Below are positions 2,656 through 13,811 of a DNA stretch of 20,000 nucleotides, piece after piece (within the stretch, counting starts at the first letter, position 1; each line of letters starts with the position of its first letter). Position numbers and translations under genes: made by a program. This stretch comes from an uncultured virus (IMG/VR IMGVR_UViG_3300031851_000008) (Duplodnaviria > Heunggongvirae > Uroviricota > Caudoviricetes), in the IMG/VR virus record IMGVR_UViG_3300031851_000008, one strand, 5' to 3'. The notes below the pieces were generated by a model that ran no database searches, was not told the origin of the DNA, and worked only from the letters and a program-made list of their open reading frames with translations.

Positions 2656-2684
2656 AAACATAGCAATAGTACTTGTGGAATAAA

Positions 2685-5600
2685 ATGGGTCTTAGTCGCT
2701 TAGATAATTTTCTGAAAAATAGTAGAGGAGATATCCTTTACGTTGATCCTTCAAGTATTGACTCGACGGATAGTATTGAAAACCAAGGTAACTCTTTGGT
2801 TAGACCCTTCAAAACTATCCAAAGGGCATTAATTGAAGCAGCAAGATTCTCTTACCAGAAGGGATTTGACAATGATAGGTTCAGTAGAACAACTATCATT
2901 GTATATCCTGGCGAGCACCTGATTGATAATAGACCAGGTTGGATACCCATACATGATAATCCACAAGGCGGAAATAATTATTTGACTCGTAGTGGATCTG
3001 CATCCAATGCGTTATCCGAATTTACTTTGGATACTAATTTTGATATTGATGATCCAGACAACGATCTCTACAAGATGAACTCGGTATACGGGGGTGTGAT
3101 TATTCCCCGTGGTACATCTATCGTTGGATTGGATCTTCGTAAAACTAAAATTAGACCAAAGTTTGTACCAGATCCTTCTGATACTGATATTAGTAGAACT
3201 TGTTTGTTCCGTGTAACGGGTACTTGTTACTTCTATCAGTTTACTTTCTTTGACGCTGACCCAAGTTCTAGAGTATTTAAAGATTACAGCACCTCTATTT
3301 TTGTACCCAATTTCTCTCACCACAAGTTAACTTGTTTTGAGTATGCTGATGGTGTAAACCCTGTCGCTTTTAATGATTCATTCCTTAACTATAACACCAC
3401 AAGGACTGACCTAGATCTTTACTATCAAAGAATTGGTCTAGCATTTGGTGCTTCTAGTGGAAGAGAGATTGGTCCTGACACTCCAGATAGTGGGGTTGAC
3501 ATTCAGACCAAGGTTGATGAATTTAGAATCGTTGGTTCTAAAGGTGAGAATATTGGTATTAGTAGTATTAAGGCGGGTAATGGTGTAACTGCAAACACCA
3601 CAATTACTGTGGATCTTGTAGAAGAACTCGATGGACTGGACGTTGATACTCCTATAAGAATTGAGGGTGTTCCTACTGGTGGATATAATGGTTCATTTGT
3701 AATTAATTCTGTTGAGAGTAAAACTAGAATTAATTACGAGGTCTCTAGTCCTCCAGCAAATCCTCTACCTTCAATTGTTGCTGGATCTGCAACCCTGAAT
3801 ATTGTTGTTGACTCGGTAACTTCTGCTTCTCCATATATCTTTAACTGTTCATTGAGATCAGTATTTGGTATGTGTGGTCTCCATGCTGATGGTAGCAAGG
3901 CGACTGGATTTAAGTCGATGGTTGTAGCTCAATTCACTGGAATTGGTCTACAAAAAGATGATGAGGCATTTGTAAAATATAACGCAATATCTGGTGTATA
4001 TGAAGATTCTACCGCTGTAGAGAACTTACATACAGATACATCTGCTGTTTATAAACCAGATTATGAGAACTTCCACATTAAGGGGTCTAATGATGCCTTC
4101 TTGCAGTTGGTCTCAGTATTTGCTATTGGATATGCTAACCACTTCCTGTCGGATACTGGTGGTGATATGTCTATCACCAACTCTAACTCTAACTTTGGAG
4201 CAAAAGCATTAATTTGTGTCGGATTTAGAAATAATGCCTTCCCTAGAGATGATACGGGATTTATCACTCACATCCTTCCACCACAAGAACTTACTACAGA
4301 TGAAGTAAACCTTGAGTGGGAAGCAATTGACGTTGCAAGAACAGTTTCTGTAGGACAAACCAGCAGATTATATTTGTATAATCAGTTCAATGCTAATGTC
4401 TCACCACAATCTGTAATTCAAGGATATAGAATTGGTGCAAAAAATCAGGATAGATTGAAGGTTATCATTAATATTAATGGTCAACCTGAGGTTAAACAAG
4501 CAGATATTATTATGCCCGAAACACAGGGCACTGGTGTCTTTGAGACAACTGCTACCAAAATACACACTGTTGGTAGAACTGCCATCGGTATTAATAGTAT
4601 TACTTCTAATATATTCACTCTTACACAACCACACTCATTTATCAGTGGGGAATCTCTCAGAATTTTGAGTGATGATGGAGAACTTCCTGATGGTTTAGAC
4701 CATAATAGACTTTATTATGCAATTACCGCTGGTATTAATACTGACCAAGTTAAGTTGGGTCAAACTCTTAATGATACAATCAGTGCTTCTGCTGTAACTG
4801 TAAACAGTAAAGGTGGTATTCTTCAAATTGAATCCAGAGTATCTGATAAGAAGTCTGGAGACATTGCTCACCCAGTACAATATGATGACACTCAACAGCA
4901 ATGGTATGTTCAGGTAAGTGAAGACAGTACAAAAAATAATATTTACAGCACTATCGTTGGATTAGGAACATTATCTCTTGGAGATGCATCTCCAAAGACA
5001 TTCATTTCTAGAACTCCAGATAATAGATCACTTGAAGATAAAATCTACAAAGTTAGATATGTTGTACCTAGAGATTCTTCTGTTCTTGGTAGACCACCAG
5101 AAGATTCTTTCGTACTTCAAGAATCTGGACAAACAGTTGGACTTACTAATAATGAAATCTCCAAGTTTAAGAGTGTAAGTCCTGTTATTCTTTCTAACAG
5201 TTCTGAATTAAGAAACCCTAGAATGCTCGCAAGTGCTGTCTGGGATGCCACTAGTGGTATTGCTACTATACACACAGAAGTACCACACCAGTTATCTACT
5301 GGTTCTCAAGTTCAGATCTTCAATGTTGTATCTACAGCAAACACTACTGGTATTGCAAACACTGGATTTAACGGTGTATTTGCGGTTACTGGAAGACCAG
5401 ATAGAAAAGCGTTTACTGTTGGTCTCAATACTAACCCTGGACAGTTTGATAACAATACTGATTTAAGAACTACGGATCTTCCTAGGTATGAGAGAAAGAA
5501 TCTTAATAACACATTATTTGTATATAAGAAGGAAGAAGTTCAGGAATATATTCCAAATGCGAAAGATGGTGTTTATCACTTAACCTTAATTGATGCATCT

Positions 5601-8510
5601 TCTAAACCTGCTGTCACTCCATTCCAGAATTTAAGATATCAGCAACCACTTAAGAACCTATTCCCACAACTCGATAGAGATAATCCAGTCTCTGACCCAG
5701 AGCAAACGAGAACATTTGCTCTTCCAACTCCTCTTGGACTTACTGAGGTTAATGATCCTCAGAAAAACCTGACTAAAGAGGTAATTAATAAGAATATTAG
5801 AGACATCAAGATTGGATTTGATGTTGCAGATGTTCTATCTCAGAGTGGTATTGCTCACACTATCCAAACTTTAGGTGACCATGGATTCAATGCGGTCACT
5901 AAAGTTGGTGTTACTAGCACTGGTTTAAATTATGGTAATGGTTCTGGAAGTATTCAGACTCTTTATAATGCTAACTTAGTTGGTTTTGGCAACTCTGATA
6001 CAGGTAAGTTTGCTACAGCAAACGTTCAAATTGATGTTGATGGTGCAATTACTGCTGTCAAGATTGTTGACGGTGGATCTGCATATGGTATTGGTAACAC
6101 TCTTGCTGTTACTGGTATTGGTTCTACTGGGGGATTTGTTCAAGGTTATGTTACTGTTGAAGAAATCCATAACAGTGTTGGTGATGCTATCAGACTTGAT
6201 GGTATTAGGGATGATCGTTTTGTAGATTATAATAACATCTATACCATCTCTGGAATTACTTTAGGTGATGATGTTAATGTAAATGTAACTTCTGCATCTG
6301 AGATCCTTGCTAAATTCCCATTCACGGGAGCACAAGCAGTCGCTGGTATCAATACTAATGGATTGAGTAATATATCTGCAGCAATTCTTTCAGATGTTAC
6401 TGCCTATATGACAGGTAAGACTGTAGGTATTACTTCAATTACTTACAATAACCTGACTGGTATTGCTAGTGTTACTTGTGACAACTCTCACGGAATGTTG
6501 GTTGGTAACAACATTAAGTTTGGTGGATTCTCCGAAGATATTCTGAATGGTGACTTCACCGTTGATACTGTCTACACTGTTGATAGTCTGTCAGTTAAAG
6601 TTGGCGTCGGTACTACAGTAGTATCACCAACTGGTGGTGGACTAATTTATCCTAAAGGTATTACATCTCAGGCAGATAGTATTGATTTTAATGATGAAGC
6701 AGTATCTGCTAGATTGGTTCCTCAGTATGCGGGTATTCAAACCAATATTGTTGCCTCTTTAACTGACACTACTCTCAACACTTTGACCGTGCAAAATGCA
6801 AGTCACGGTGGTTGGGATGTTGGTGATTATCTCGTTATGAATAATGAGATCATGCGTATTAGTCAGTCAGTTAGTAGTGAGAATGCTATTGATGTCTTCC
6901 GTGGATTGTTTGGATCACAAAAACAACAGCACCCAATTGGATCTGTAGTTAAGAAAGTTAGTTTTAAACCTGTTGAATTTAGAAGAAACTCTATTCAACG
7001 TGCATCTGGACATACTTTTGAATATCTTGGATTCGGTCCTGGTAACTACTCTACTGCACTCCCAGAGAGACAGGATAGACAGTTTAAGCAGGTTGAGAGA
7101 TTGTTATCTCAGTCAGTATCTATTGACGGTGGTACTCCATTCTATAATGGACTTGATGATAGAGGTAATTCTTATACTGTTAACAAATTCACTAGTGGTA
7201 CAACTGGTAAAGACTTAGTTACTAATGCACCAGTTCCTACTGTAAGAGGTGAAGACATCACTAGTGATAGTGGTGAGATTGGATTTGATGTAACTTCTAG
7301 TGAACAACTTACAATTAATAGGGGATTGGTTGTTGATGGTGGTAAGGACAATGTTATCATCTCTGAGTTCAATGGACCTGCGGTATTCAATAAGAAAATT
7401 ACTGCAAATGCTCCGATTGAAGGTAATAGTGTTCTGATCCAGGGTGATCAAACTATTGCTAGAGAGTACACTGTTGGTATCTCTACACCACAAGTTGCTG
7501 GAAACGTTGGTAACGTTGTATATGACGCTGAACCAAGATCTGGTGGTGAAATTGGGTGGGTTTATACTAACGATAATAACTGGAAGAAGTTTGCTCCTAT
7601 CCAAGCAAATCCAGACAACTATTACGTTGGTCTTTGGAGTGGTTCATTCAAGGGTGATGGTAGTCAGTTAACAAACGTATCTGATGTTTGGGTATTTGAC
7701 GGTGTTGGTGTCTCGACTACCGCACAAGTTGGTATTGAAACTAGTCAAGCAAAAGCAGGATATTCTCTGTATGCTGCTGGTCCTGTTCTCTTTGAGAATA
7801 ACGTTGAATTTAGAATGGGTTCCTTAGTTTGGAACGTTACTGATGGGTGGATTGTTGAGACTGGTATTACTACTTTTAATCAGCAAGTCAACTTTAACAC
7901 TACAAACACTATTGGTATTGCAACGTTTGTTAATGATGTTATTGTCACAACAGATAAAAACACCACAGGTGATACTCAAGGTAATTATGTAAGATTTACT
8001 CAAACTGATCAGGCACTCAATAGTTCTTACTTCTATGGTGGAATTAAGTTTGAAGGTAGAGACATCAGTAATGATGGTGAGCGCGGATTTGTTAAGGGTG
8101 TATCTGAAGGTACTTCTGGTCAATTTGGATTAAGTTTTGGTACTCAAGACTCTGGTCCATCTAATCCTTTAGAAAGACTGAGAATTAATAAAGATGGAAA
8201 TGCTACATTCTCTGGAACTGTTACTGCAAACTCTGACGAGAGACTTAAAGAAAATGTTGTTGGTATCACTAACGCACTTGATAAAGTTCTCGATCTGCGA
8301 GGTGTATTCTTTAATAGAATAGGTGATCCAGAACGTCAGATTGGTGTAATTGCACAAGAAGTTGAGAAGGTTATTCCTGAATTAGTTCTTGAGGCGAGTG
8401 ATGGAGTTAAATCTGTTGCATACCAGAATATGGTTGCGGTTCTGATTGAGGCAATCAAGGAGCAGCAAGAACAGATCAACGAGTTGAAGGACAGGTTGGA
8501 CAATCTCTAA
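2685..8510 (+). CDS. Large virion structural / tail-fibre-like protein with C-terminal peptidase S74 intramolecular chaperone domain
   Basis: Likely start ATG 2685 (MGLSRLDNFLK; track uses TTG 2673). N-terminal LYV...G-x-S-x-x-RPFKTIQRAL (DUF1565-like beta-helix cap); repeated T-x-x-x-H-x-[LF]-x-x-G beta modules; ends with SDERLKEN...IGVIAQEVEKVIPELV...SVAYQNMVAVLIEAIKEQ plus coiled coil (S74 autocleavage chaperone); late promoter upstream. Confidence 0.88.
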   Translation: MGLSRLDNFLKNSRGDILYVDPSSIDSTDSIENQGNSLVRPFKTIQRALIEAARFSYQKGFDNDRFSRTTIIVYPGEHLIDNRPGWIPIHDNPQGGNNYLTRSGSASNALSEFTLDTNFDIDDPDNDLYKMNSVYGGVIIPRGTSIVGLDLRKTKIRPKFVPDPSDTDISRTCLFRVTGTCYFYQFTFFDADPSSRVFKDYSTSIFVPNFSHHKLTCFEYADGVNPVAFNDSFLNYNTTRTDLDLYYQRIGLAFGASSGREIGPDTPDSGVDIQTKVDEFRIVGSKGENIGISSIKAGNGVTANTTITVDLVEELDGLDVDTPIRIEGVPTGGYNGSFVINSVESKTRINYEVSSPPANPLPSIVAGSATLNIVVDSVTSASPYIFNCSLRSVFGMCGLHADGSKATGFKSMVVAQFTGIGLQKDDEAFVKYNAISGVYEDSTAVENLHTDTSAVYKPDYENFHIKGSNDAFLQLVSVFAIGYANHFLSDTGGDMSITNSNSNFGAKALICVGFRNNAFPRDDTGFITHILPPQELTTDEVNLEWEAIDVARTVSVGQTSRLYLYNQFNANVSPQSVIQGYRIGAKNQDRLKVIININGQPEVKQADIIMPETQGTGVFETTATKIHTVGRTAIGINSITSNIFTLTQPHSFISGESLRILSDDGELPDGLDHNRLYYAITAGINTDQVKLGQTLNDTISASAVTVNSKGGILQIESRVSDKKSGDIAHPVQYDDTQQQWYVQVSEDSTKNNIYSTIVGLGTLSLGDASPKTFISRTPDNRSLEDKIYKVRYVVPRDSSVLGRPPEDSFVLQESGQTVGLTNNEISKFKSVSPVILSNSSELRNPRMLASAVWDATSGIATIHTEVPHQLSTGSQVQIFNVVSTANTTGIANTGFNGVFAVTGRPDRKAFTVGLNTNPGQFDNNTDLRTTDLPRYERKNLNNTLFVYKKEEVQEYIPNAKDGVYHLTLIDASSKPAVTPFQNLRYQQPLKNLFPQLDRDNPVSDPEQTRTFALPTPLGLTEVNDPQKNLTKEVINKNIRDIKIGFDVADVLSQSGIAHTIQTLGDHGFNAVTKVGVTSTGLNYGNGSGSIQTLYNANLVGFGNSDTGKFATANVQIDVDGAITAVKIVDGGSAYGIGNTLAVTGIGSTGGFVQGYVTVEEIHNSVGDAIRLDGIRDDRFVDYNNIYTISGITLGDDVNVNVTSASEILAKFPFTGAQAVAGINTNGLSNISAAILSDVTAYMTGKTVGITSITYNNLTGIASVTCDNSHGMLVGNNIKFGGFSEDILNGDFTVDTVYTVDSLSVKVGVGTTVVSPTGGGLIYPKGITSQADSIDFNDEAVSARLVPQYAGIQTNIVASLTDTTLNTLTVQNASHGGWDVGDYLVMNNEIMRISQSVSSENAIDVFRGLFGSQKQQHPIGSVVKKVSFKPVEFRRNSIQRASGHTFEYLGFGPGNYSTALPERQDRQFKQVERLLSQSVSIDGGTPFYNGLDDRGNSYTVNKFTSGTTGKDLVTNAPVPTVRGEDITSDSGEIGFDVTSSEQLTINRGLVVDGGKDNVIISEFNGPAVFNKKITANAPIEGNSVLIQGDQTIAREYTVGISTPQVAGNVGNVVYDAEPRSGGEIGWVYTNDNNWKKFAPIQANPDNYYVGLWSGSFKGDGSQLTNVSDVWVFDGVGVSTTAQVGIETSQAKAGYSLYAAGPVLFENNVEFRMGSLVWNVTDGWIVETGITTFNQQVNFNTTNTIGIATFVNDVIVTTDKNTTGDTQGNYVRFTQTDQALNSSYFYGGIKFEGRDISNDGERGFVKGVSEGTSGQFGLSFGTQDSGPSNPLERLRINKDGNATFSGTVTANSDERLKENVVGITNALDKVLDLRGVFFNRIGDPERQIGVIAQEVEKVIPELVLEASDGVKSVAYQNMVAVLIEAIKEQQEQINELKDRLDNL

Positions 8511-8579: not shown

Positions 8580-10361
8580 GTGTCCCTCGTCAACATCTAC
8601 TTCGACACTGCCAAAGGTGCCACAGTTCCATCTTTTAATGTTGGAGAGACCCACTTTGCTTGGGAGCATCGGCATCGTGGAAGTGATTATGGTAAGGCAA
8701 AGCAGATTGCTGCCCAATTTGATTCCAAGTATATTCGCTGCCGTTGGTGGGAGAATGTTTCTACTCGTAATGACAGGGATGATCATCACGACGACATTAT
8801 TCATGATTGGTTGATTAAACAACCTGGTATCAAGAAGATTGGTAGAGAGACTTTTGAGTATGATCAGTCTCGATACAACTTGGATATTATCGGTGAGATG
8901 ATCCATGAACAATTCTTCGCAGGTAAGGAGAAGGTGTATGAGGAATTCAAACCGCGTCCATATCAGCAGAAGTTCCTTAGTAAGATTGCATGGTGTACTA
9001 GTAAAGAGTTCCTGCTGTTTGCTAAGTGCCGTGCAGGCAAGTCTGCAATGGTCCTGAAGCACATTGTTGATACTGACTATAAAGTATCCCTGGTTTGCTC
9101 TCGCCAGAAGTCTCCTGAGGGGTCCTGGAAAGACGATTCAAACAAATACTTCCCTTCAGTCAAGTACGTCTCTCTCAAAAAACCTGGTTGGGAGACACAT
9201 CTTGAATACTGGCGTCAACGTGATGTGAACGTTGTTCTCTGGGGTACGGTTCAGACTTGCTTGAAGCGTCTGGACAAGATCAAGAACGTTGACTTCGTTG
9301 CCTTTGACGAGGCACATATTGGAGGTACTGCTGATCAGTTTGTCAAACTGCGCGAAGAACTTGATACTCGGATCTGCTATATCTCTGGAACTGCCCACAA
9401 ACTTTGTTGGATGTTCCCCGATGATAATCAGAAGTTTGTCTATACCTATTTTGATGAGCAACTGGATGTCCAGAATGGGGTGTTCCAACGTCCTAAGATG
9501 AATGTTGCCTTTGCTAAGTATCAAACTTCTGCATATCAAGAGATCTTTGGTAACGATCCTGATGCGATGAAGAACATCTTCACCATGAAAGGAAATGAGT
9601 TCCTACATGAAGATCTGGTCAGAGAGTTTGCTCATAATTACTTTGGACCGCAACGTAATATCCGTATCGGTGATCGTTTGTTGAAGGGTACATATCACAT
9701 GATGGCACTGCCCAGCGTCAAGGCATGTTATGCATTCCAAAAGTTGGTTGAGTGTTACTATCCTGCATTGGTAGTTACCTCTGATGCTAAGAAAGATCAG
9801 GATGATATCAATCTATTCTTGGAGGAGCATTCCAAGGCACTCATCATCACTCAGTCTGCAAATGTTCTGGGTGTGACTGCTAAGAAGATTGATACGGTTA
9901 TCAATTGCCGTGGTGGAGAATCGATTGAGTTCTGGACACAGTTTGCATTCCGTGGTGGATCTGGTGAACATGATTGGTGGGTGATTGATTTTGATGCTCA
10001 GAGGTGCCTACGTGCTCTTCATACAGCGTTCCAACTTGCATGTGATAGCAATCCTTCACTCTCCCAATTCAGCGTTGTAGACTTCACCAACATCCATGAA
10101 TGGAACGATGGGTTCCAGGAACTGAGTAAGGAGGCATTTGAAGATGCTTTAGCAGCAGATGTTGAGAGCAGCATCTCTACTGTGACCAGCATTGTTGAGT
10201 CTCTTGATCTCAGTGGTCTGAGTGACTTCAACTTCAACCTGAAGTCTGCTCTTACGACAGTCTTGAAGGAGACGCAGTTAAATGACAATGGTGCTAACAA
10301 TCAAAGTTGTGTCGTGATGGAGACCGATCGCGTAAAAAAGTCGATGACCTTGACACGCTGA
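8580..10361 (+). CDS. SF2 DExH helicase/ATPase of restriction-enzyme type, with an N-terminal GIY-YIG/T5orf172-like domain (tentative); 0-frame product of a probable -1 frameshift gene
   Basis: Q-motif FKPRPYQ, Walker A AKCRAGKS, Walker B FDEAH, motif III SGT, motif VI variant QFAFRGG. N-terminal ~120 aa has IY...VGET...R...HD-x-x-x-H-x-x-L...E-x-F, resembling the nuclease domains of such R proteins. Confidence 0.8.
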   Translation: MSLVNIYFDTAKGATVPSFNVGETHFAWEHRHRGSDYGKAKQIAAQFDSKYIRCRWWENVSTRNDRDDHHDDIIHDWLIKQPGIKKIGRETFEYDQSRYNLDIIGEMIHEQFFAGKEKVYEEFKPRPYQQKFLSKIAWCTSKEFLLFAKCRAGKSAMVLKHIVDTDYKVSLVCSRQKSPEGSWKDDSNKYFPSVKYVSLKKPGWETHLEYWRQRDVNVVLWGTVQTCLKRLDKIKNVDFVAFDEAHIGGTADQFVKLREELDTRICYISGTAHKLCWMFPDDNQKFVYTYFDEQLDVQNGVFQRPKMNVAFAKYQTSAYQEIFGNDPDAMKNIFTMKGNEFLHEDLVREFAHNYFGPQRNIRIGDRLLKGTYHMMALPSVKACYAFQKLVECYYPALVVTSDAKKDQDDINLFLEEHSKALIITQSANVLGVTAKKIDTVINCRGGESIEFWTQFAFRGGSGEHDWWVIDFDAQRCLRALHTAFQLACDSNPSLSQFSVVDFTNIHEWNDGFQELSKEAFEDALAADVESSISTVTSIVESLDLSGLSDFNFNLKSALTTVLKETQLNDNGANNQSCVVMETDRVKKSMTLTR

Positions 10362-10379
10362 AGAAGCAGACTGTCAAGG
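10319..10379 (+). other. Candidate programmed -1 ribosomal frameshift signal
   Basis: GGAG 10319-10322; A_AAA_AAG at 10334-10340, in phase with the upstream ORF (GTA AAA AAG); 7-nt spacer; stem CCTTGACA (10348-10355)/TGTCAAGG (10372-10379) with inner CTG/CAG; downstream ORF is in the -1 frame. Confidence 0.72.
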
Positions 10380-11713
10380 CACTTTTAGAATCTATCCCTC
10401 TGACCATGTTTTATATCATCCGTAGTGGTCGGAATGTATACTCCATCAACGATGTGATTGGTTCTGATGTTTATTCTTCTGTAAGTGGTGATAAAGAAGG
10501 AATCCTCTCTGAGGTTATCTCTAAAAATCCTCGCAGTGTAGAACTTCTGACCCGTCGCATCGGTTTGGTCTCCAACAGCATTCAGAAGAGTATGAGGCAA
10601 TCGGTCTCTGAGACTATTAACGGTCTATCTGTCTCATCTGCTATTCAGCAATCGATCCCCACTTCTCTCCTTGATACAATGATCAATGACTGTCAAGATA
10701 TGAGCAACACATACATGTTTGGAGATCCTAGTGGATCACACTCTGCTCGCCTTCTAGAACGAGGAATCAATCCCGACAGTCTCACTGTGTGGGAGAGTTG
10801 CGATAGTCACCGTAATCGTGTAGGATATATTGACAAGCAGATCAAAATCGTTGCTACCCACCCAGACATGAAGTTCACTGCCATTCTTGCTAATCCTCCA
10901 TACAACGATCCGACCAAGAAGGCAAGGAACAATAAGTTGTGGACAAAGATTGTAGAGCAACATCTTGAGTTGCTTGCTCCTGGTGGTGATATGTGTGAGG
11001 TTACTCCTGCATCAGTGTTGGGTAACACTGGCAAGGGTAAGAAGTTCATGCAGTTGTTCTCTACTATCTACAATCTTAAACTGATTGATTACACTGCTGA
11101 TGATTACTTTACAGAAGGTGTGGACATTTGTCGTTGGCATCTAGTGAATGAACCATATCAGGGTAAGACTACTGTGATTACTCATGATGGAATCTTTATC
11201 TGGGATCTCCGTGATGGTCTACCTGTTTTTGGTGATGCTGCTCTTAAGTATTCTATTTTAGAGAAGATTGCTAACTCCAACCATCCTCGTATTCCTTTAA
11301 AGATGGGTCAGGTAATTGCTAATGATGATTACACTCCTGATGGTAAGTATGAGATTTATAAATCTGCAGATAAGATTGGTAGAACTGATGTTCTTCCCAA
11401 TACTACTGATGTACTAAAATTTATTGTACCATTCTCATCAACATATAAGAAGAGGTTTATCTCTAATGGATATGTGGGTATGCTTAACGCTTGGTGTCCT
11501 ATTACTTCGGAAGAGGAAGGGACGCGCCTTAGCAAAATCTTTGATAATTCGATTATCAAGTTTTTTGTGGACAATTATAAAAAGACTGCAGGATTTACTC
11601 CTGCTATTAAGAATGCGGAAGTACCTGACATCACAGTCTACAAGGATCTACCTCAGCAATTTGGTTTTACATCCGAAGAACTGAATTACTTGGAGAGATC
11701 TAATGTCATCTAA
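10340..11713 (+). CDS. Eco57I-like N6-adenine methyltransferase catalytic/target-recognition region; probably the C-terminal part of a ~1044-aa frameshift fusion with 8580-10340
   Basis: KFTAILANPPY (motif IV, 10892-10903), LW-x-x-IV, LL-x-x-GG-x-x-x-x-VTP, F-x-x-x-V motif VIII-like, then a TRD-like tail. Motif I is degenerate (FGDPSGS). Track start TTG 10307 and first ATG 10406 lack an evident SD. Confidence 0.75.
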   Translation, partial: VDDLDTLKKQTVKALLESIPLTMFYIIRSGRNVYSINDVIGSDVYSSVSGDKEGILSEVISKNPRSVELLTRRIGLVSNSIQKSMRQSVSETINGLSVSSAIQQSIPTSLLDTMINDCQDMSNTYMFGDPSGSHSARLLERGINPDSLTVWESCDSHRNRVGYIDKQIKIVATHPDMKFTAILANPPYNDPTKKARNNKLWTKIVEQHLELLAPGGDMCEVTPASVLGNTGKGKKFMQLFSTIYNLKLIDYTADDYFTEGVDICRWHLVNEPYQGKTTVITHDGIFIWDLRDGLPVFGDAALKYSILEKIANSNHPRIPLKMGQVIANDDYTPDGKYEIYKSADKIGRTDVLPNTTDVLKFIVPFSSTYKKRFISNGYVGMLNAWCPITSEEEGTRLSKIFDNSIIKFFVDNYKKTAGFTPAIKNAEVPDITVYKDLPQQFGFTSEELNYLERSNVI

Positions 11714-12119
11714 GAACCGTCACAATCAGCAGCATGGGTCCACCATTGAACGCTCTGATGAGAGGATTAAGCAAACACAGGAGGTCTTCACTCCCATTGC
11801 TCTAATTGAACAGATGATTCATGAGATACCTGCATCACAACTGAAGGATCCTGACTCTAAGTTCATGGATAATTGTGCTGGCAGTGGTAACTTCATTGTT
11901 TGTTTATGTGAGGCACTGCAGGAATATCACAGCAAAGATCACATCATCAACAATATGCTGTATGCTGTGGAGTTGATGGAAGACAATCACAAAGAGATGT
12001 GTAGGAGACTTGACATCCCTGCAGATCACCCACATTTTGTCTGTGCAGATGCACTTCAGTATCATTACAGATTTGATGGAACTACAGGACCCGTCACGGT
12101 AGACCAATTCCTGGTATAA
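11703..12119 (+). CDS. Small adenine-methyltransferase-like protein carrying only SAM-binding motifs X, I, II, III
   Basis: QEVFTP (motif X), FMDNCAGSGNF (motif I), LYAVEL (motif II), CADAL (motif III); ends with no NPPY/DPPY. GGAG SD at 11692-11695; overlaps upstream gene by 11 nt. Confidence 0.8.
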   Translation: MSSKNRHNQQHGSTIERSDERIKQTQEVFTPIALIEQMIHEIPASQLKDPDSKFMDNCAGSGNFIVCLCEALQEYHSKDHIINNMLYAVELMEDNHKEMCRRLDIPADHPHFVCADALQYHYRFDGTTGPVTVDQFLV

Positions 12120-12132: not shown

Positions 12133-13380
12133 ATGAGTTCAATGCAACTTCGTCCCCACCAGGCAGAAGCACTTGATGTTATGGATCAGAAGTCCAAAGG
12201 CATCGTGGTGGTTCCGACTGGTGGAGGTAAGACCTTTATCGCAATTGCCGATGCAATGCGTGAGATGGATAAGATGGAGGGATGCAAGACCATTGTTGTG
12301 GTTGCTCCTCGCCTCCTGCTTGCTCGTCAACTATCTGATGAGTTTACTCAGCATATTAAGAATGCTGCTGTCCTTCATGTTCACTCTGGTGGTAATGATC
12401 TTCCATACAATTGCACCACCGATCCCAGCATGATTTACAAGTGGGATTATCATACTACTTGTCATAAGCTAATTTTTACTACATATCATTCGCTTCATCG
12501 CATACAAGAATCTAAAATAGTTGTAGATTGCATTTATTTTGATGAGGCGCATAATTCGGTCAAAAAGAATTTCTTTGGTGCTGCCAGGTATTTCACTTCT
12601 GCTGCTCGTCGCTGCTACTTCTTTACTGCTACTCCTAAGTATTCTGCCACTCTTAAAAAACATGGTATGAATGACAGCGTGTATGGTGGCATTATATACA
12701 ATGTTCCAGCACCACGATTGATTAAGAACGGGTCTATTCTCCCCCCTAAGATCAACGCTATCCCTATCGCTGCTATTCGTGAGAAGAGTGTTGAGGAAGC
12801 AGCTCAACGTGACTGCATGACTCTTTTGAGGACTCTTCGTAATGAAGATCATATGCAGAAGGTTCTAATCGCTGCTCCTAACACTACTGTGTTAGGTAAC
12901 ATGATCATCAAAACTACCTTCCTTCAAGAGGTAAGGCAGATGGGGTATGATATATTGTGGATAACTAGTAGGCAGGGTGCATTTCACAACTATAACAAAA
13001 TTAGTCGTGAGAAGTTCTTCTCTCTTGTTCGTGAGTATGGTGATCAACCTGGTAAGAAGTTTATTGTTATTCATTACTCTATCTTGAGCGAAGGTATCTC
13101 TGTTCCTGGTCTCACATCATTAGTTCTGATGCGTCAGATGAATGTTATTGAGATGTGTCAGTCTGTCGGTCGCGTTCTTCGCTTACATCTTGATGATGTT
13201 AAGAGAATACAGCAAGGACAACTTACCCCAGGTAAACTGGAAGACTACAAAAAGTCCTTTGGTCTTGTTCATGTACCTGTTTACAGCAATGTGGGTATTT
13301 CTACAGTCAAGCGTCTGCAGGATGTAGTAAACACAGTGTTTGTAGAAGGTCAACCCGCTATCTCAACTATTAAACGATGA
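12133..13380 (+). CDS. SF2 DEAH-box helicase (ResIII-like), stand-alone
   Basis: LRPHQ, VPTGGGKT, VVAP, FTTYHS, FDEAH, TAT, ILSEGISVPGL, QSVGRVLR: full set of motifs Q and I-VI. Confidence 0.9.
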   Translation: MSSMQLRPHQAEALDVMDQKSKGIVVVPTGGGKTFIAIADAMREMDKMEGCKTIVVVAPRLLLARQLSDEFTQHIKNAAVLHVHSGGNDLPYNCTTDPSMIYKWDYHTTCHKLIFTTYHSLHRIQESKIVVDCIYFDEAHNSVKKNFFGAARYFTSAARRCYFFTATPKYSATLKKHGMNDSVYGGIIYNVPAPRLIKNGSILPPKINAIPIAAIREKSVEEAAQRDCMTLLRTLRNEDHMQKVLIAAPNTTVLGNMIIKTTFLQEVRQMGYDILWITSRQGAFHNYNKISREKFFSLVREYGDQPGKKFIVIHYSILSEGISVPGLTSLVLMRQMNVIEMCQSVGRVLRLHLDDVKRIQQGQLTPGKLEDYKKSFGLVHVPVYSNVGISTVKRLQDVVNTVFVEGQPAISTIKR

Positions 13381-13811
13381 CATACACAGTAGAACGATCC
13401 GCATATTCCTTTGTGAAGGGAATCCGATGGGATCATGTTGATAGACAAAAGGAAATAGAAGAAGCGGCAGGAACTTATGAAGATAGGGGAGACACAAGTT
13501 TACTTGTAAATTGTGGGTACTCTGAACCAGGTCTTCTACAAAACATTCTCATTCAAATGAAGAGAATTGGTTATGGCATGTTCCACATGTATTACAGTAG
13601 AGTAAATGATGGAGAGACTGGTGGATGGCATGAAGATGAGATGGATGTCTTGATTGTTGCATCAATGGGTAGAGTTAAGTATTTGTTTGATATTGATGGT
13701 ACAATAGAAGAGGTTATTCTTTTACCAGGGGATGCCCTTTATATTGATAAAGGAACTCCTCATAGTGCGGTTCATCTTGAACCTAGAATCACTTGTAGTT
13801 TTTGTGAATAG
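13377..13811 (+). CDS. Cupin/JmjC-like 2OG-Fe(II) oxygenase
   Basis: WHED-x-x-DV-x-I...G-x-x-x-Y...LLPGDALYI-x-x-G-x-x-H...R-x-x-x-SF; ATGA overlap with upstream gene. Confidence 0.75.
   Translation: MTYTVERSAYSFVKGIRWDHVDRQKEIEEAAGTYEDRGDTSLLVNCGYSEPGLLQNILIQMKRIGYGMFHMYYSRVNDGETGGWHEDEMDVLIVASMGRVKYLFDIDGTIEEVILLPGDALYIDKGTPHSAVHLEPRITCSFCE

Follow-up and report, generated by a model that had tools for sequence, protein, structure and literature searches.

The stretch of DNA analysed here, referred to as the window, comprises 20,000 nucleotides (nt) from an uncultured virus of the Caudoviricetes (IMG/VR record IMGVR_UViG_3300031851_000008). On its plus strand, an open reading frame (ORF1) carrying the motifs of a superfamily 2 (SF2) helicase-like ATPase overlaps a methyltransferase-encoding frame (ORF2) that lies in the -1 frame relative to it. 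At the overlap, a slippery heptamer is flanked by a Shine–Dalgarno (SD)-like element and a hairpin, which together form a candidate signal for -1 ribosomal frameshifting of the type known from E. coli dnaX. The locus is composed as follows:

8580..10361, plus strand: ORF1, the 0-frame, with a GTG start, 593 amino acids (aa) and the C-terminal end ...METDRVKKSMTLTR*
About aa 1-125 of ORF1, plus strand: N-terminal domain with no assigned fold
9021-9044, 9303-9317, 9384-9395 and 9942-9965, plus strand: SF2 helicase-like ATPase motifs of ORF1, namely Walker A AKCRAGKS, FDEAH, SGTA and FAFRGGSG, in this order
10319..10322, plus strand: SD-like GGAG, with 11 nt between it and the heptamer
10334..10340, plus strand: slippery heptamer A_AAA_AAG, read as GT[A] AAA AAG in ORF1
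10341..10347, plus strand: spacer TCGATGA, 7 nt, between the heptamer and the hairpin
10348..10379, plus strand: hairpin, with an outer stem (10348-10355 with 10372-10379) and an inner stem (10358-10360 with 10367-10369)
10340..11713, plus strand: ORF2, the continuation in the -1 frame, 457 codons after G10340 is re-read, then a stop
Content of ORF2, plus strand: three parts in succession, a helical coupler-like region, a gamma-class N6-adenine methyltransferase and a C-terminal region
10718-10741 and 10892-10903, plus strand: methyltransferase motifs FGDPSGSH and NPPY of ORF2

Since ORF1 reads these bases as GT[A] AAA AAG, the heptamer stands in X_XXY_YYZ phase. The -1 frame has stops at 10283 and 10295 and is open thereafter, from 10307 until 11713. 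A -1 shift at the heptamer would fuse the two frames into a product of 1044 aa with the junction ...DRVKK/VDDLDTLKK, and the unshifted ORF1 is the predicted short product of 593 aa, its stop codon (TGA, 10359-10361) falling inside the hairpin. Two candidate start codons are present in the -1 frame, TTG 10307 on the 5′ side of the heptamer and ATG 10406 on its 3′ side. The first-pass annotation of this DNA had proposed a dnaX-type cassette at this overlap, and the positions it gave for the ORFs, the GGAG and the hairpin with the enclosed 0-frame stop, as well as the phase of the heptamer, all agree with the window sequence; translation likewise reproduces its 593-aa product, its fusion of ~1044 aa and the junction, and the comparative evidence given below backs the assignment to the dnaX type.

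When folded, the hairpin reaches a free energy (dG) of -15.9 kcal/mol, compared to -7.6 +/- 2.1 kcal/mol for shuffled sequences (z -3.9), with 1 of 200 shuffles being equally stable, in line with the structure originally proposed. The heptamer by itself is not rare, as AAAAAAG occurs 10 times in the window versus 5.6 times expected and at least 10 times in 11 of 200 shuffles, and its significance therefore rests on context and conservation. A search of the window against Rfam at gathering thresholds returned no family at the shift site, the only hit being tRNA. An intrinsic terminator was also considered, with CACTTTT lying 3′ of the hairpin in the window, and was rejected because the T-run is not kept in relatives.

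Conservation of the frame break and its signal

Several lines of evidence place the two frames within one protein family. The profile phrog_22930 (691 positions) matches ORF1 at its positions 13-572 (E 3.5e-184) and residues 10-115 of ORF2 at its positions 584-689, and because these matches are consecutive, one family profile spans the break. ORF1 further matches phrog_16 (DNA helicase, E 1.7e-17), and the rest of ORF2 matches phrog_3689 (DNA methyltransferase, E 6.8e-36). Pfam identified Eco57I in ORF2 (E 1.3e-6) and, in ORF1, nothing beyond a weak ResIII match (E 0.027); searches with ORF1 in NCBIfam and among PDB sequences gave no match, and ORF2 drew one weak row from PDB sequences (E 0.17) and a weak Type IIG row from PADLOC (E 0.0056). 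For the protein as a whole, Pfam, NCBIfam and PADLOC returned no family match.

The homologues in isolate cyanophages, namely MA01, S-CAM7 and ACG-2014f, are distant. The MA01 homologue is a single coding sequence of 1074 aa, the S-CAM7 homologue (L002, 4182-7335) consists of two genes of 704 and 348 aa, and that of ACG-2014f (L003, 3732-6817) of two genes of 691 and 337 aa, stop and start overlapping in these two-gene forms. The cut in S-CAM7 and ACG-2014f lies ~110 codons 3′ of the window's shift site, just ahead of the methyltransferase fold; all three homologues run continuously over the window's break site, and the -1 frame continuation aligns to each of them. In the phage GenBank collection, matches were confined to eight distant records, which cover small portions of the query at 66-82% DNA identity. 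G001, the nearest record, contains no match to the gene.

For positions 9800-10900, 24 public runs were listed, 16 of which contained at least half of the sampled words, and 4 of the 24 were compared as contigs. Two of these (X9 and X13) provided one contig each across the whole segment, with 0 gaps and 7 differing letters each, a third (X8) provided a contig across 9800-10432, also with 0 gaps, and no insertion or deletion (indel) was listed in the comparison. The 1-nt deficit of the window relative to in-frame relatives sits 3′ of the heptamer, in the spacer (AAG TC-GAT versus AAG TCT GAT), and thus outside the A run; moreover, the broken junction is represented by 14 distinct sequences from two collections. 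Because the independent contigs from three other studies carry no indel, an assembly error is excluded as far as these contigs show, and because the ratio of non-synonymous to synonymous substitution rates (dN/dS) of ORF2 is 0.09-0.12 inside the frame-broken clade, the gene is not a pseudogene. On this evidence, the frame break is real DNA.

Close relatives of the locus (L004-L042) were obtained by scanning IMG/VR and metagenome contigs with the -1 frame protein, some contigs being present in both collections. Together with the window they make up 40 sources, of which L036 and L037 do not reach the site. AAAAAAG is present in 37 sources reaching the site and missing from L012. Twenty of these 37 heptamer-bearing sources are frame-broken and 17 are in-frame. 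All 20 frame-broken sources have a frame 0 stop six codons after AAG, and all 17 in-frame sources have a -1 frame stop one codon after AAG (GTC TGA or GTC TAA), which is the dnaX arrangement. Homologues are hence neither uniformly in-frame nor devoid of the signal, since the break recurs in 20 sources and the in-frame ones keep the heptamer, the stem and the -1 stop, an outcome that leaves the first-pass proposal standing.

Within the 201-nt junction region, we distinguished 26 sequences (14 broken, 11 in-frame and L012). The X base of the heptamer is always A, although the codon that contains it varies between GTA, GCA and ACA (V, A or T). The SD-like GGAG is found in 19 of 20 distinct junction sequences, L030 being the exception, and the G ahead of GAG is fixed while the preceding residue varies between M, R, L and Q. 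The heptamer is also kept in L047, L053, L055, L058, L092, L093, L094 and L095, and in L047, L092, L093 and L058 it is preceded at an equal distance by GGAG, GGAGG or GAGG. Synonymous variation points in the same direction: among 20 distinct full-length sequences, the gene-wide minimum of the observed-to-expected ratio (obs/exp) is the 15-codon segment starting from AAA, with a value of 0.30 versus a 1st percentile of 0.395 and a median of 1.0. For the in-frame class alone, obs/exp of this segment is 0.326 (rank 7 of 1047), and the minimum of that class, 0.269, starts three codons earlier.

Two other dips in synonymous variation lie far from the slip site. The first, at ~11560-11660 (codons +408 to +421 past the slip site), by alignment columns, is a second strong minimum with obs/exp of 0.32-0.35 in the 3′-terminal part of the methyltransferase ORF, shortly before ATG 11703 of the next gene, and may be an embedded start or a regulatory signal. 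The second, at ~8958-9003 (codons -460 to -455), consists of a few 15-codon segments with a synonymous variation of 0 in the broken clade alone, not in the in-frame class, and may stem from a tract of recent recombination or from some other embedded element.

In the alignment of homologues, the heptamer is conserved, and the stem covaries. Across 20 sequences (14 of them distinct, with distant lineages included), 93.8% of the cells pair, and 4 of the 8 outer stem pairs show compensatory changes on both sides among the 14 distinct sequences. The covariation score of 0.324 compares with 0.214 for shuffles, 0 of 500 of which reach it, and with at most 0.128 for slid partners. No hairpin is present in L012. 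These comparisons show that the constraint on the heptamer, the SD-like GGAG and the hairpin exceeds what coding demands. The cassette as a whole persists across a clade of uncultured cyanophage contigs whose protein identity falls to ~58%.

The codons on the far side of the site are likewise constrained. Between the slip site and ATG 10406 (22 codons), the 11 distinct full-length broken sequences contain 9 synonymous versus 1 non-synonymous extra codon variants, the sole non-synonymous one being the junction codon, and ATG 10406 is therefore not the N-terminus. Inside the broken clade, pairwise dN/dS of ORF2 is 0.09-0.12 at dS of 0.71-0.97, which equals that of the in-frame relatives, and within its initial 110 codons alone it amounts to 0.07-0.12. 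These counts and ratios show purifying selection on the -1 frame, beginning at the slip site, and the gene is not decaying. In the window, no SD-like sequence was found before TTG 10307, and because this codon lies in conserved Ser-Cys codons common to in-frame relatives, nothing evolved there after the break. The first-pass annotation held that ORF2 has 'no convincing start'; both candidate starts do exist, and the phrase is thus a judgement, not a fact.

Distant lineages, recovered from a profile scan and follow-up scans, extend this picture. At ~70% identity, L047-L050 and L055 are in-frame; they carry the heptamer, GGAG and a wobble-rich hairpin (dG -11.4, z -2.7), and their -1 frame reaches a stop one codon later (GAT TGA). 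At 58% identity, L058 is frame-broken at the same heptamer by a frame 0 UAG directly 3′ of AAG, with a 7-nt spacer followed by a stem of different sequence (dG -15.5, z -4.9). A third mode of break is seen in L093/L094 (AAG AAC CAG ACC CTA ACG CTT TAA), and the spacer is 7 nt in both of these other frame-broken lineages. L092/L095, which are close to L093/L094, are in-frame with a -1 stop after one codon, and relatives at <=50% identity have no heptamer. In the -1 frame of L093/L094, a TGA lies three codons 5′ of the heptamer and the next start codon follows at +84 nt; in that of L058, the first start codon is at +66 nt. Since L058 and L093/L094 have no usable start, their conserved codons past the site are reachable only by a shift, and all three frame-broken lineages, the window's included, are predicted to need it for the long product.

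In an IQ-TREE phylogeny of 22 rows, the 11 window-type broken sequences form one clade (100/100) nested among in-frame forms, with the in-frame L031 as its sister; in the FastTree tree, the support of the window's broken clade is 0.99. With L012 as the root of the FastTree tree (23 rows), the heptamer-bearing sequences fall into clade I, (L058,(L093,(L092,L095))), with supports of 1.0, 1.0 and 0.97, and clade II, which extends from L047 through the window. Whatever the ancestral state, these topologies require the frame state to have changed no fewer than three times, and the differing sequences of the three broken junctions fit independent events. Truncated ORF1 forms are also frequent in the protein collection, where we identified P0001 (98% to L058, 59 members), P0002 (83%, 45 members, ending in ...VLVKK), P0004-P0006 (28, 5 and 57 members, ending in VKKNQTLTL or TKKNQTLTL) and >20 window-type clusters of 591-598 aa. 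Many clusters of 587-604 aa named 'hypothetical protein' correspond to the predicted short form of this gene.

Probable ribosomal frameshifting and its alternatives

We interpret these observations, with a probability of roughly 0.8, as functional dnaX-type -1 programmed ribosomal frameshifting inside one T4-like cyanophage gene, which probably makes both a short and a long protein. Ribosomes translating ORF1 would pause with tRNA-Lys on AAA-AAG (10335-10340), held by the hairpin 7 nt on the 3′ side and probably also by a putative pairing of GGAG with the anti-SD sequence 11 nt on the 5′ side. A fraction of them would slip back one base on A_AAA_AAG into the -1 frame and go on to synthesize the 1044-aa motor-methyltransferase, and those that do not shift would stop six codons later, within the hairpin, and release the 593-aa motor-only protein. 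In E. coli, it is the lack of tRNA-Lys(CUU) that renders A_AAA_AAG so prone to shifting. It would be the ribosome rather than RNA polymerase that slips, both products presumably accumulate and work together, and the efficiency of the shift is expected to be intermediate, making a flip of frame polarity nearly neutral. One may only speculate that the product ratio is fixed and has a role in stoichiometry.

A more elaborate scenario, which we offer tentatively, holds that the efficiency is intermediate and of the order of that of dnaX, so that a 1-nt or 4-nt indel 3′ of the heptamer would swap the product that depends on the shift with little change in the long:short ratio. The short motor-only protein would then act as a genuine subunit, joining the full-length Type ISP-like enzyme (see below) in one assembly, and recoding would set the stoichiometry of a restriction-modification-like machine encoded by the phage. 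Such swapping at a near-constant ratio would explain why polarity changed at least three times around a fixed heptamer, SD-like element and hairpin.

Several observations weigh against frameshifting. TTG 10307 could start ORF2 without a shift in the window's clade, and S-CAM7 and ACG-2014f encode the same protein as two separate genes, which means that a plain split is tolerated in the family. The cassette of the broken class alone (obs/exp 0.311, rank 28 of 1047) is not its lowest segment of synonymous variation. In the close set alone the stem is mostly invariant, with 1 of 11 pairs being compensatory, a count matched by 228 of 500 shuffles; the covariation comes from few independent events, and the stem is also largely constrained by conserved residues. 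The spacer of the in-frame L092/L095 is 11 nt. In the in-frame L030 (336-407), whose heptamer and -1 stop are intact, GGAG is missing and the hairpin is degenerate (dG -6.0, z +1.0); the signal may be on its way to being lost in this lineage. Finally, the contigs of the RNA run X17 (9800-10106 and 10783-10900) both leave the site outside.

The presence of TTG 10307 in the -1 frame 5′ of the site, and the tolerance of two-gene forms in S-CAM7 (704+348 aa) and ACG-2014f (691+337 aa), would suit an explanation in which a 1-nt deletion simply made two genes, with ORF2 started independently, either at TTG 10307 or by coupled re-initiation near the ORF1 stop, and the cassette kept for some other reason. 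In addition, the majority of the more distant matches in the protein collection are ~690-725 aa long, the size of the first gene in these two phages. We nevertheless consider such a split improbable. TTG 10307 has no SD-like sequence and lies within Ser-Cys codons that in-frame relatives share, ATG 10406 is ruled out as an N-terminus by the 9 synonymous versus 1 non-synonymous variants, and L093/L094 and L058 have no start that reaches the conserved codons. Moreover, a split explains neither the synonymous minimum, the fixed X base, the fixed G before GAG and the covariation of the stem, nor the -1 stop in 17 of 17 in-frame sources.

Transcriptional slippage, in which RNA polymerase adds an A in the A6 run and thereby brings part of the mRNA in frame, would yield the same proteins as ribosomal frameshifting. 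A homopolymer is indeed present, the product would be identical (V-K-K-V...), and the contigs of the RNA run X17 only flank the site. Against this, the run always consists of exactly six A, always in X_XXY_YYZ phase and followed by G, and is thus below the runs of >7 A named for transcriptional realignment in the pertinent passage of PMC3711429. Furthermore, a hairpin at 7 nt and an SD-like sequence at 11 nt correspond to the stimulators of ribosomal shifting in the dnaX passage of the same source (PMC3711429); both are conserved here, and the hairpin covaries, which makes slippage of the polymerase improbable. Lastly, although the break adjoins the A6 run and in-frame relatives exist, a homopolymer assembly error or a recent pseudogene can practically be dismissed in view of the gap-free contigs from three other studies, the 14 distinct broken junctions in two collections, the position of the missing base outside the A run and an ORF2 dN/dS of 0.09-0.12 at dS up to 0.97 in the broken clade.

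Protein architecture and comparison with known systems

The AlphaFold model of an in-frame relative (L014; 1043 aa, 13-row alignment) has a mean predicted local distance difference test (pLDDT) value of 65.6, with residues 551-587 and the C-terminal residues 882-1019 below 50. According to the coordinates, the last heptamer codon corresponds to residue 586, and the site thus ends a predicted disordered interdomain linker, past which the model features a helical region (590-682) followed by the methyltransferase fold. The best whole-length Foldseek match is LlaBIII (4xqk_B, E 2.7e-15, 1036 columns, template modelling (TM) score 0.37), and the second is LlaGI (5ffj_B, E 7.9e-12, TM 0.28). The LlaBIII/LlaGI matches span 979-1039 columns at TM 0.26-0.37 and 12% identity, and the pLDDT of the model is low. 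The Eco57I and phrog_16 matches agree with these hits. With these values in mind, the long form is better described as Type ISP-like; in its predicted order, the N-terminal domain is followed by an SF2 motor, a coupler and an N6-adenine methyltransferase, with a C-terminal region at the end.

A separate model of the N-terminal 126 residues has a pLDDT of 79.6. Pfam gave no match for residues 1-127 even at E 5, and Foldseek with the domain model gave none at E 0.001 or better. With VIA, the best Z was 5.5, to unrelated folds, and the GIY-YIG proteins At-HIGLE (Z 4.2) and Slx1 (Z 3.7 and 3.5) appeared as tied weak rows. The motifs NIY...FxVGxT...R...E had suggested a GIY-YIG nuclease; the model gave no clear fold match, and we make no claim to this effect. 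Because the domain has no clear family or fold match, the 'nuclease' part of the name that the first-pass annotation gave to ORF1 is unproven and has been dropped here.

The surroundings of the gene are those of the usual variable region of a T4-like cyanophage. A 138-aa ORF (11703-12119) shares 11 nt with the end of the methyltransferase ORF. Its matches are to phrog_4376 and to N6_Mtase (Pfam E 2.6e-5), the latter confined to the N-terminal section (profile positions 21-89 of 311); it may be a methyltransferase fragment or a small S-adenosylmethionine-binding protein. It is followed by a second SF2 helicase (12133-13380; ResIII, E 7.6e-21, and Helicase_C, with PbeA-like PADLOC rows) and, with a 4-nt overlap, by a 144-aa JmjC/cupin protein (13377-13811), these two and the frameshifted gene forming a block of DNA enzymes. 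Elsewhere in the window, we identified a tRNA-Leu(TAA) at 978-1064, a 1945-aa tail fibre protein at 2673-8510 (phrog_529, with C-terminal matches to many fibre families) and, further on, genes for 2-oxoglutarate-Fe(II) oxygenases, an HNH endonuclease and endonuclease V-like proteins.

Literature searches, including the relevant passages of PMC5009743, PMC10885494 and PMC3711429, returned no account of frameshifting in a helicase-methyltransferase gene of cyanophages or other phages; the passage concerned in PMC10885494 counts 'methyltransferases' among the phage genes 'known to contain a frameshift', but gives no particulars. The cassette itself is textbook; the novelty lies in the class of gene that carries it and in a frame polarity that changed repeatedly while the signal stayed the same. 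We are not aware of any described gene family whose orthologues switch, at a single conserved site, between 'shift to truncate' and 'shift to extend'. To our knowledge, programmed frameshifts of phages are annotated almost only in tail chaperone genes, and as a consequence this gene is currently called two unrelated ORFs or a broken gene. If our interpretation is correct, a class of DNA enzymes joins phage recoding, and an annotation rule follows for a widespread cyanophage gene. The same cassette, present in both polarities among close relatives, would constitute a natural experiment on selection for efficiency and product ratio, and a phage-encoded Type ISP-like enzyme may act as a mixed assembly of motor-only and motor-methyltransferase proteins.

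In IS3-family elements (e.g. IS911), OrfA and OrfAB are related by a -1 shift at A_AAA_AAG that fuses overlapping frames with the help of SD-like and structured stimulators. The shift proposed here would likewise join two overlapping frames at A_AAA_AAG, whereas the window carries neither a transposase nor inverted repeats, and orthologues in both frame states, which are present here, are not known to us for IS3 elements. The tail assembly chaperone G/GT of tailed phages offers another parallel; there, too, a -1 shift lengthens a phage protein at its C-terminus and sets the ratio of two products, as it presumably does here. The tail chaperone frameshift cluster is mentioned in a passage of PMC3711429. 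In contrast to G/GT, the present gene encodes a DNA enzyme rather than a morphogenesis protein, is equipped with SD-like and hairpin stimulators and has in-frame relatives.

Set against the Type ISP domain list in the corresponding passage of PMC4666363, the predicted protein resembles LlaBIII and LlaGI in its order of motor, helical coupler, gamma-class adenine methyltransferase and C-terminal region. Unlike these enzymes, it encodes ~1045 aa instead of ~1500-1580, Pfam and Foldseek found no Mrr nuclease in its N-terminal domain, and it is carried by a phage, its relatives often being split into two genes.

The closest counterpart is E. coli dnaX, whose signal, as given in the dnaX passage of PMC3711429, consists of the slippery A_AAA_AAG with an SD-like stimulator on its 5′ side and a hairpin on its 3′ side, with a shift efficiency of ~50%. 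Both systems have the same heptamer, an SD-like stimulator and a hairpin; in both, the site separates domains, and a common N-terminus is shared by the long form and the short form. They differ in that dnaX encodes a clamp-loader subunit and the gene described here a phage motor-methyltransferase, presumably expressed in a marine picocyanobacterium. The in-frame relatives copy dnaX exactly, with one codon and then a stop after the shift, whereas the polarity of the window is inverted, translation without a shift being predicted to give the short form and the shift the long one.

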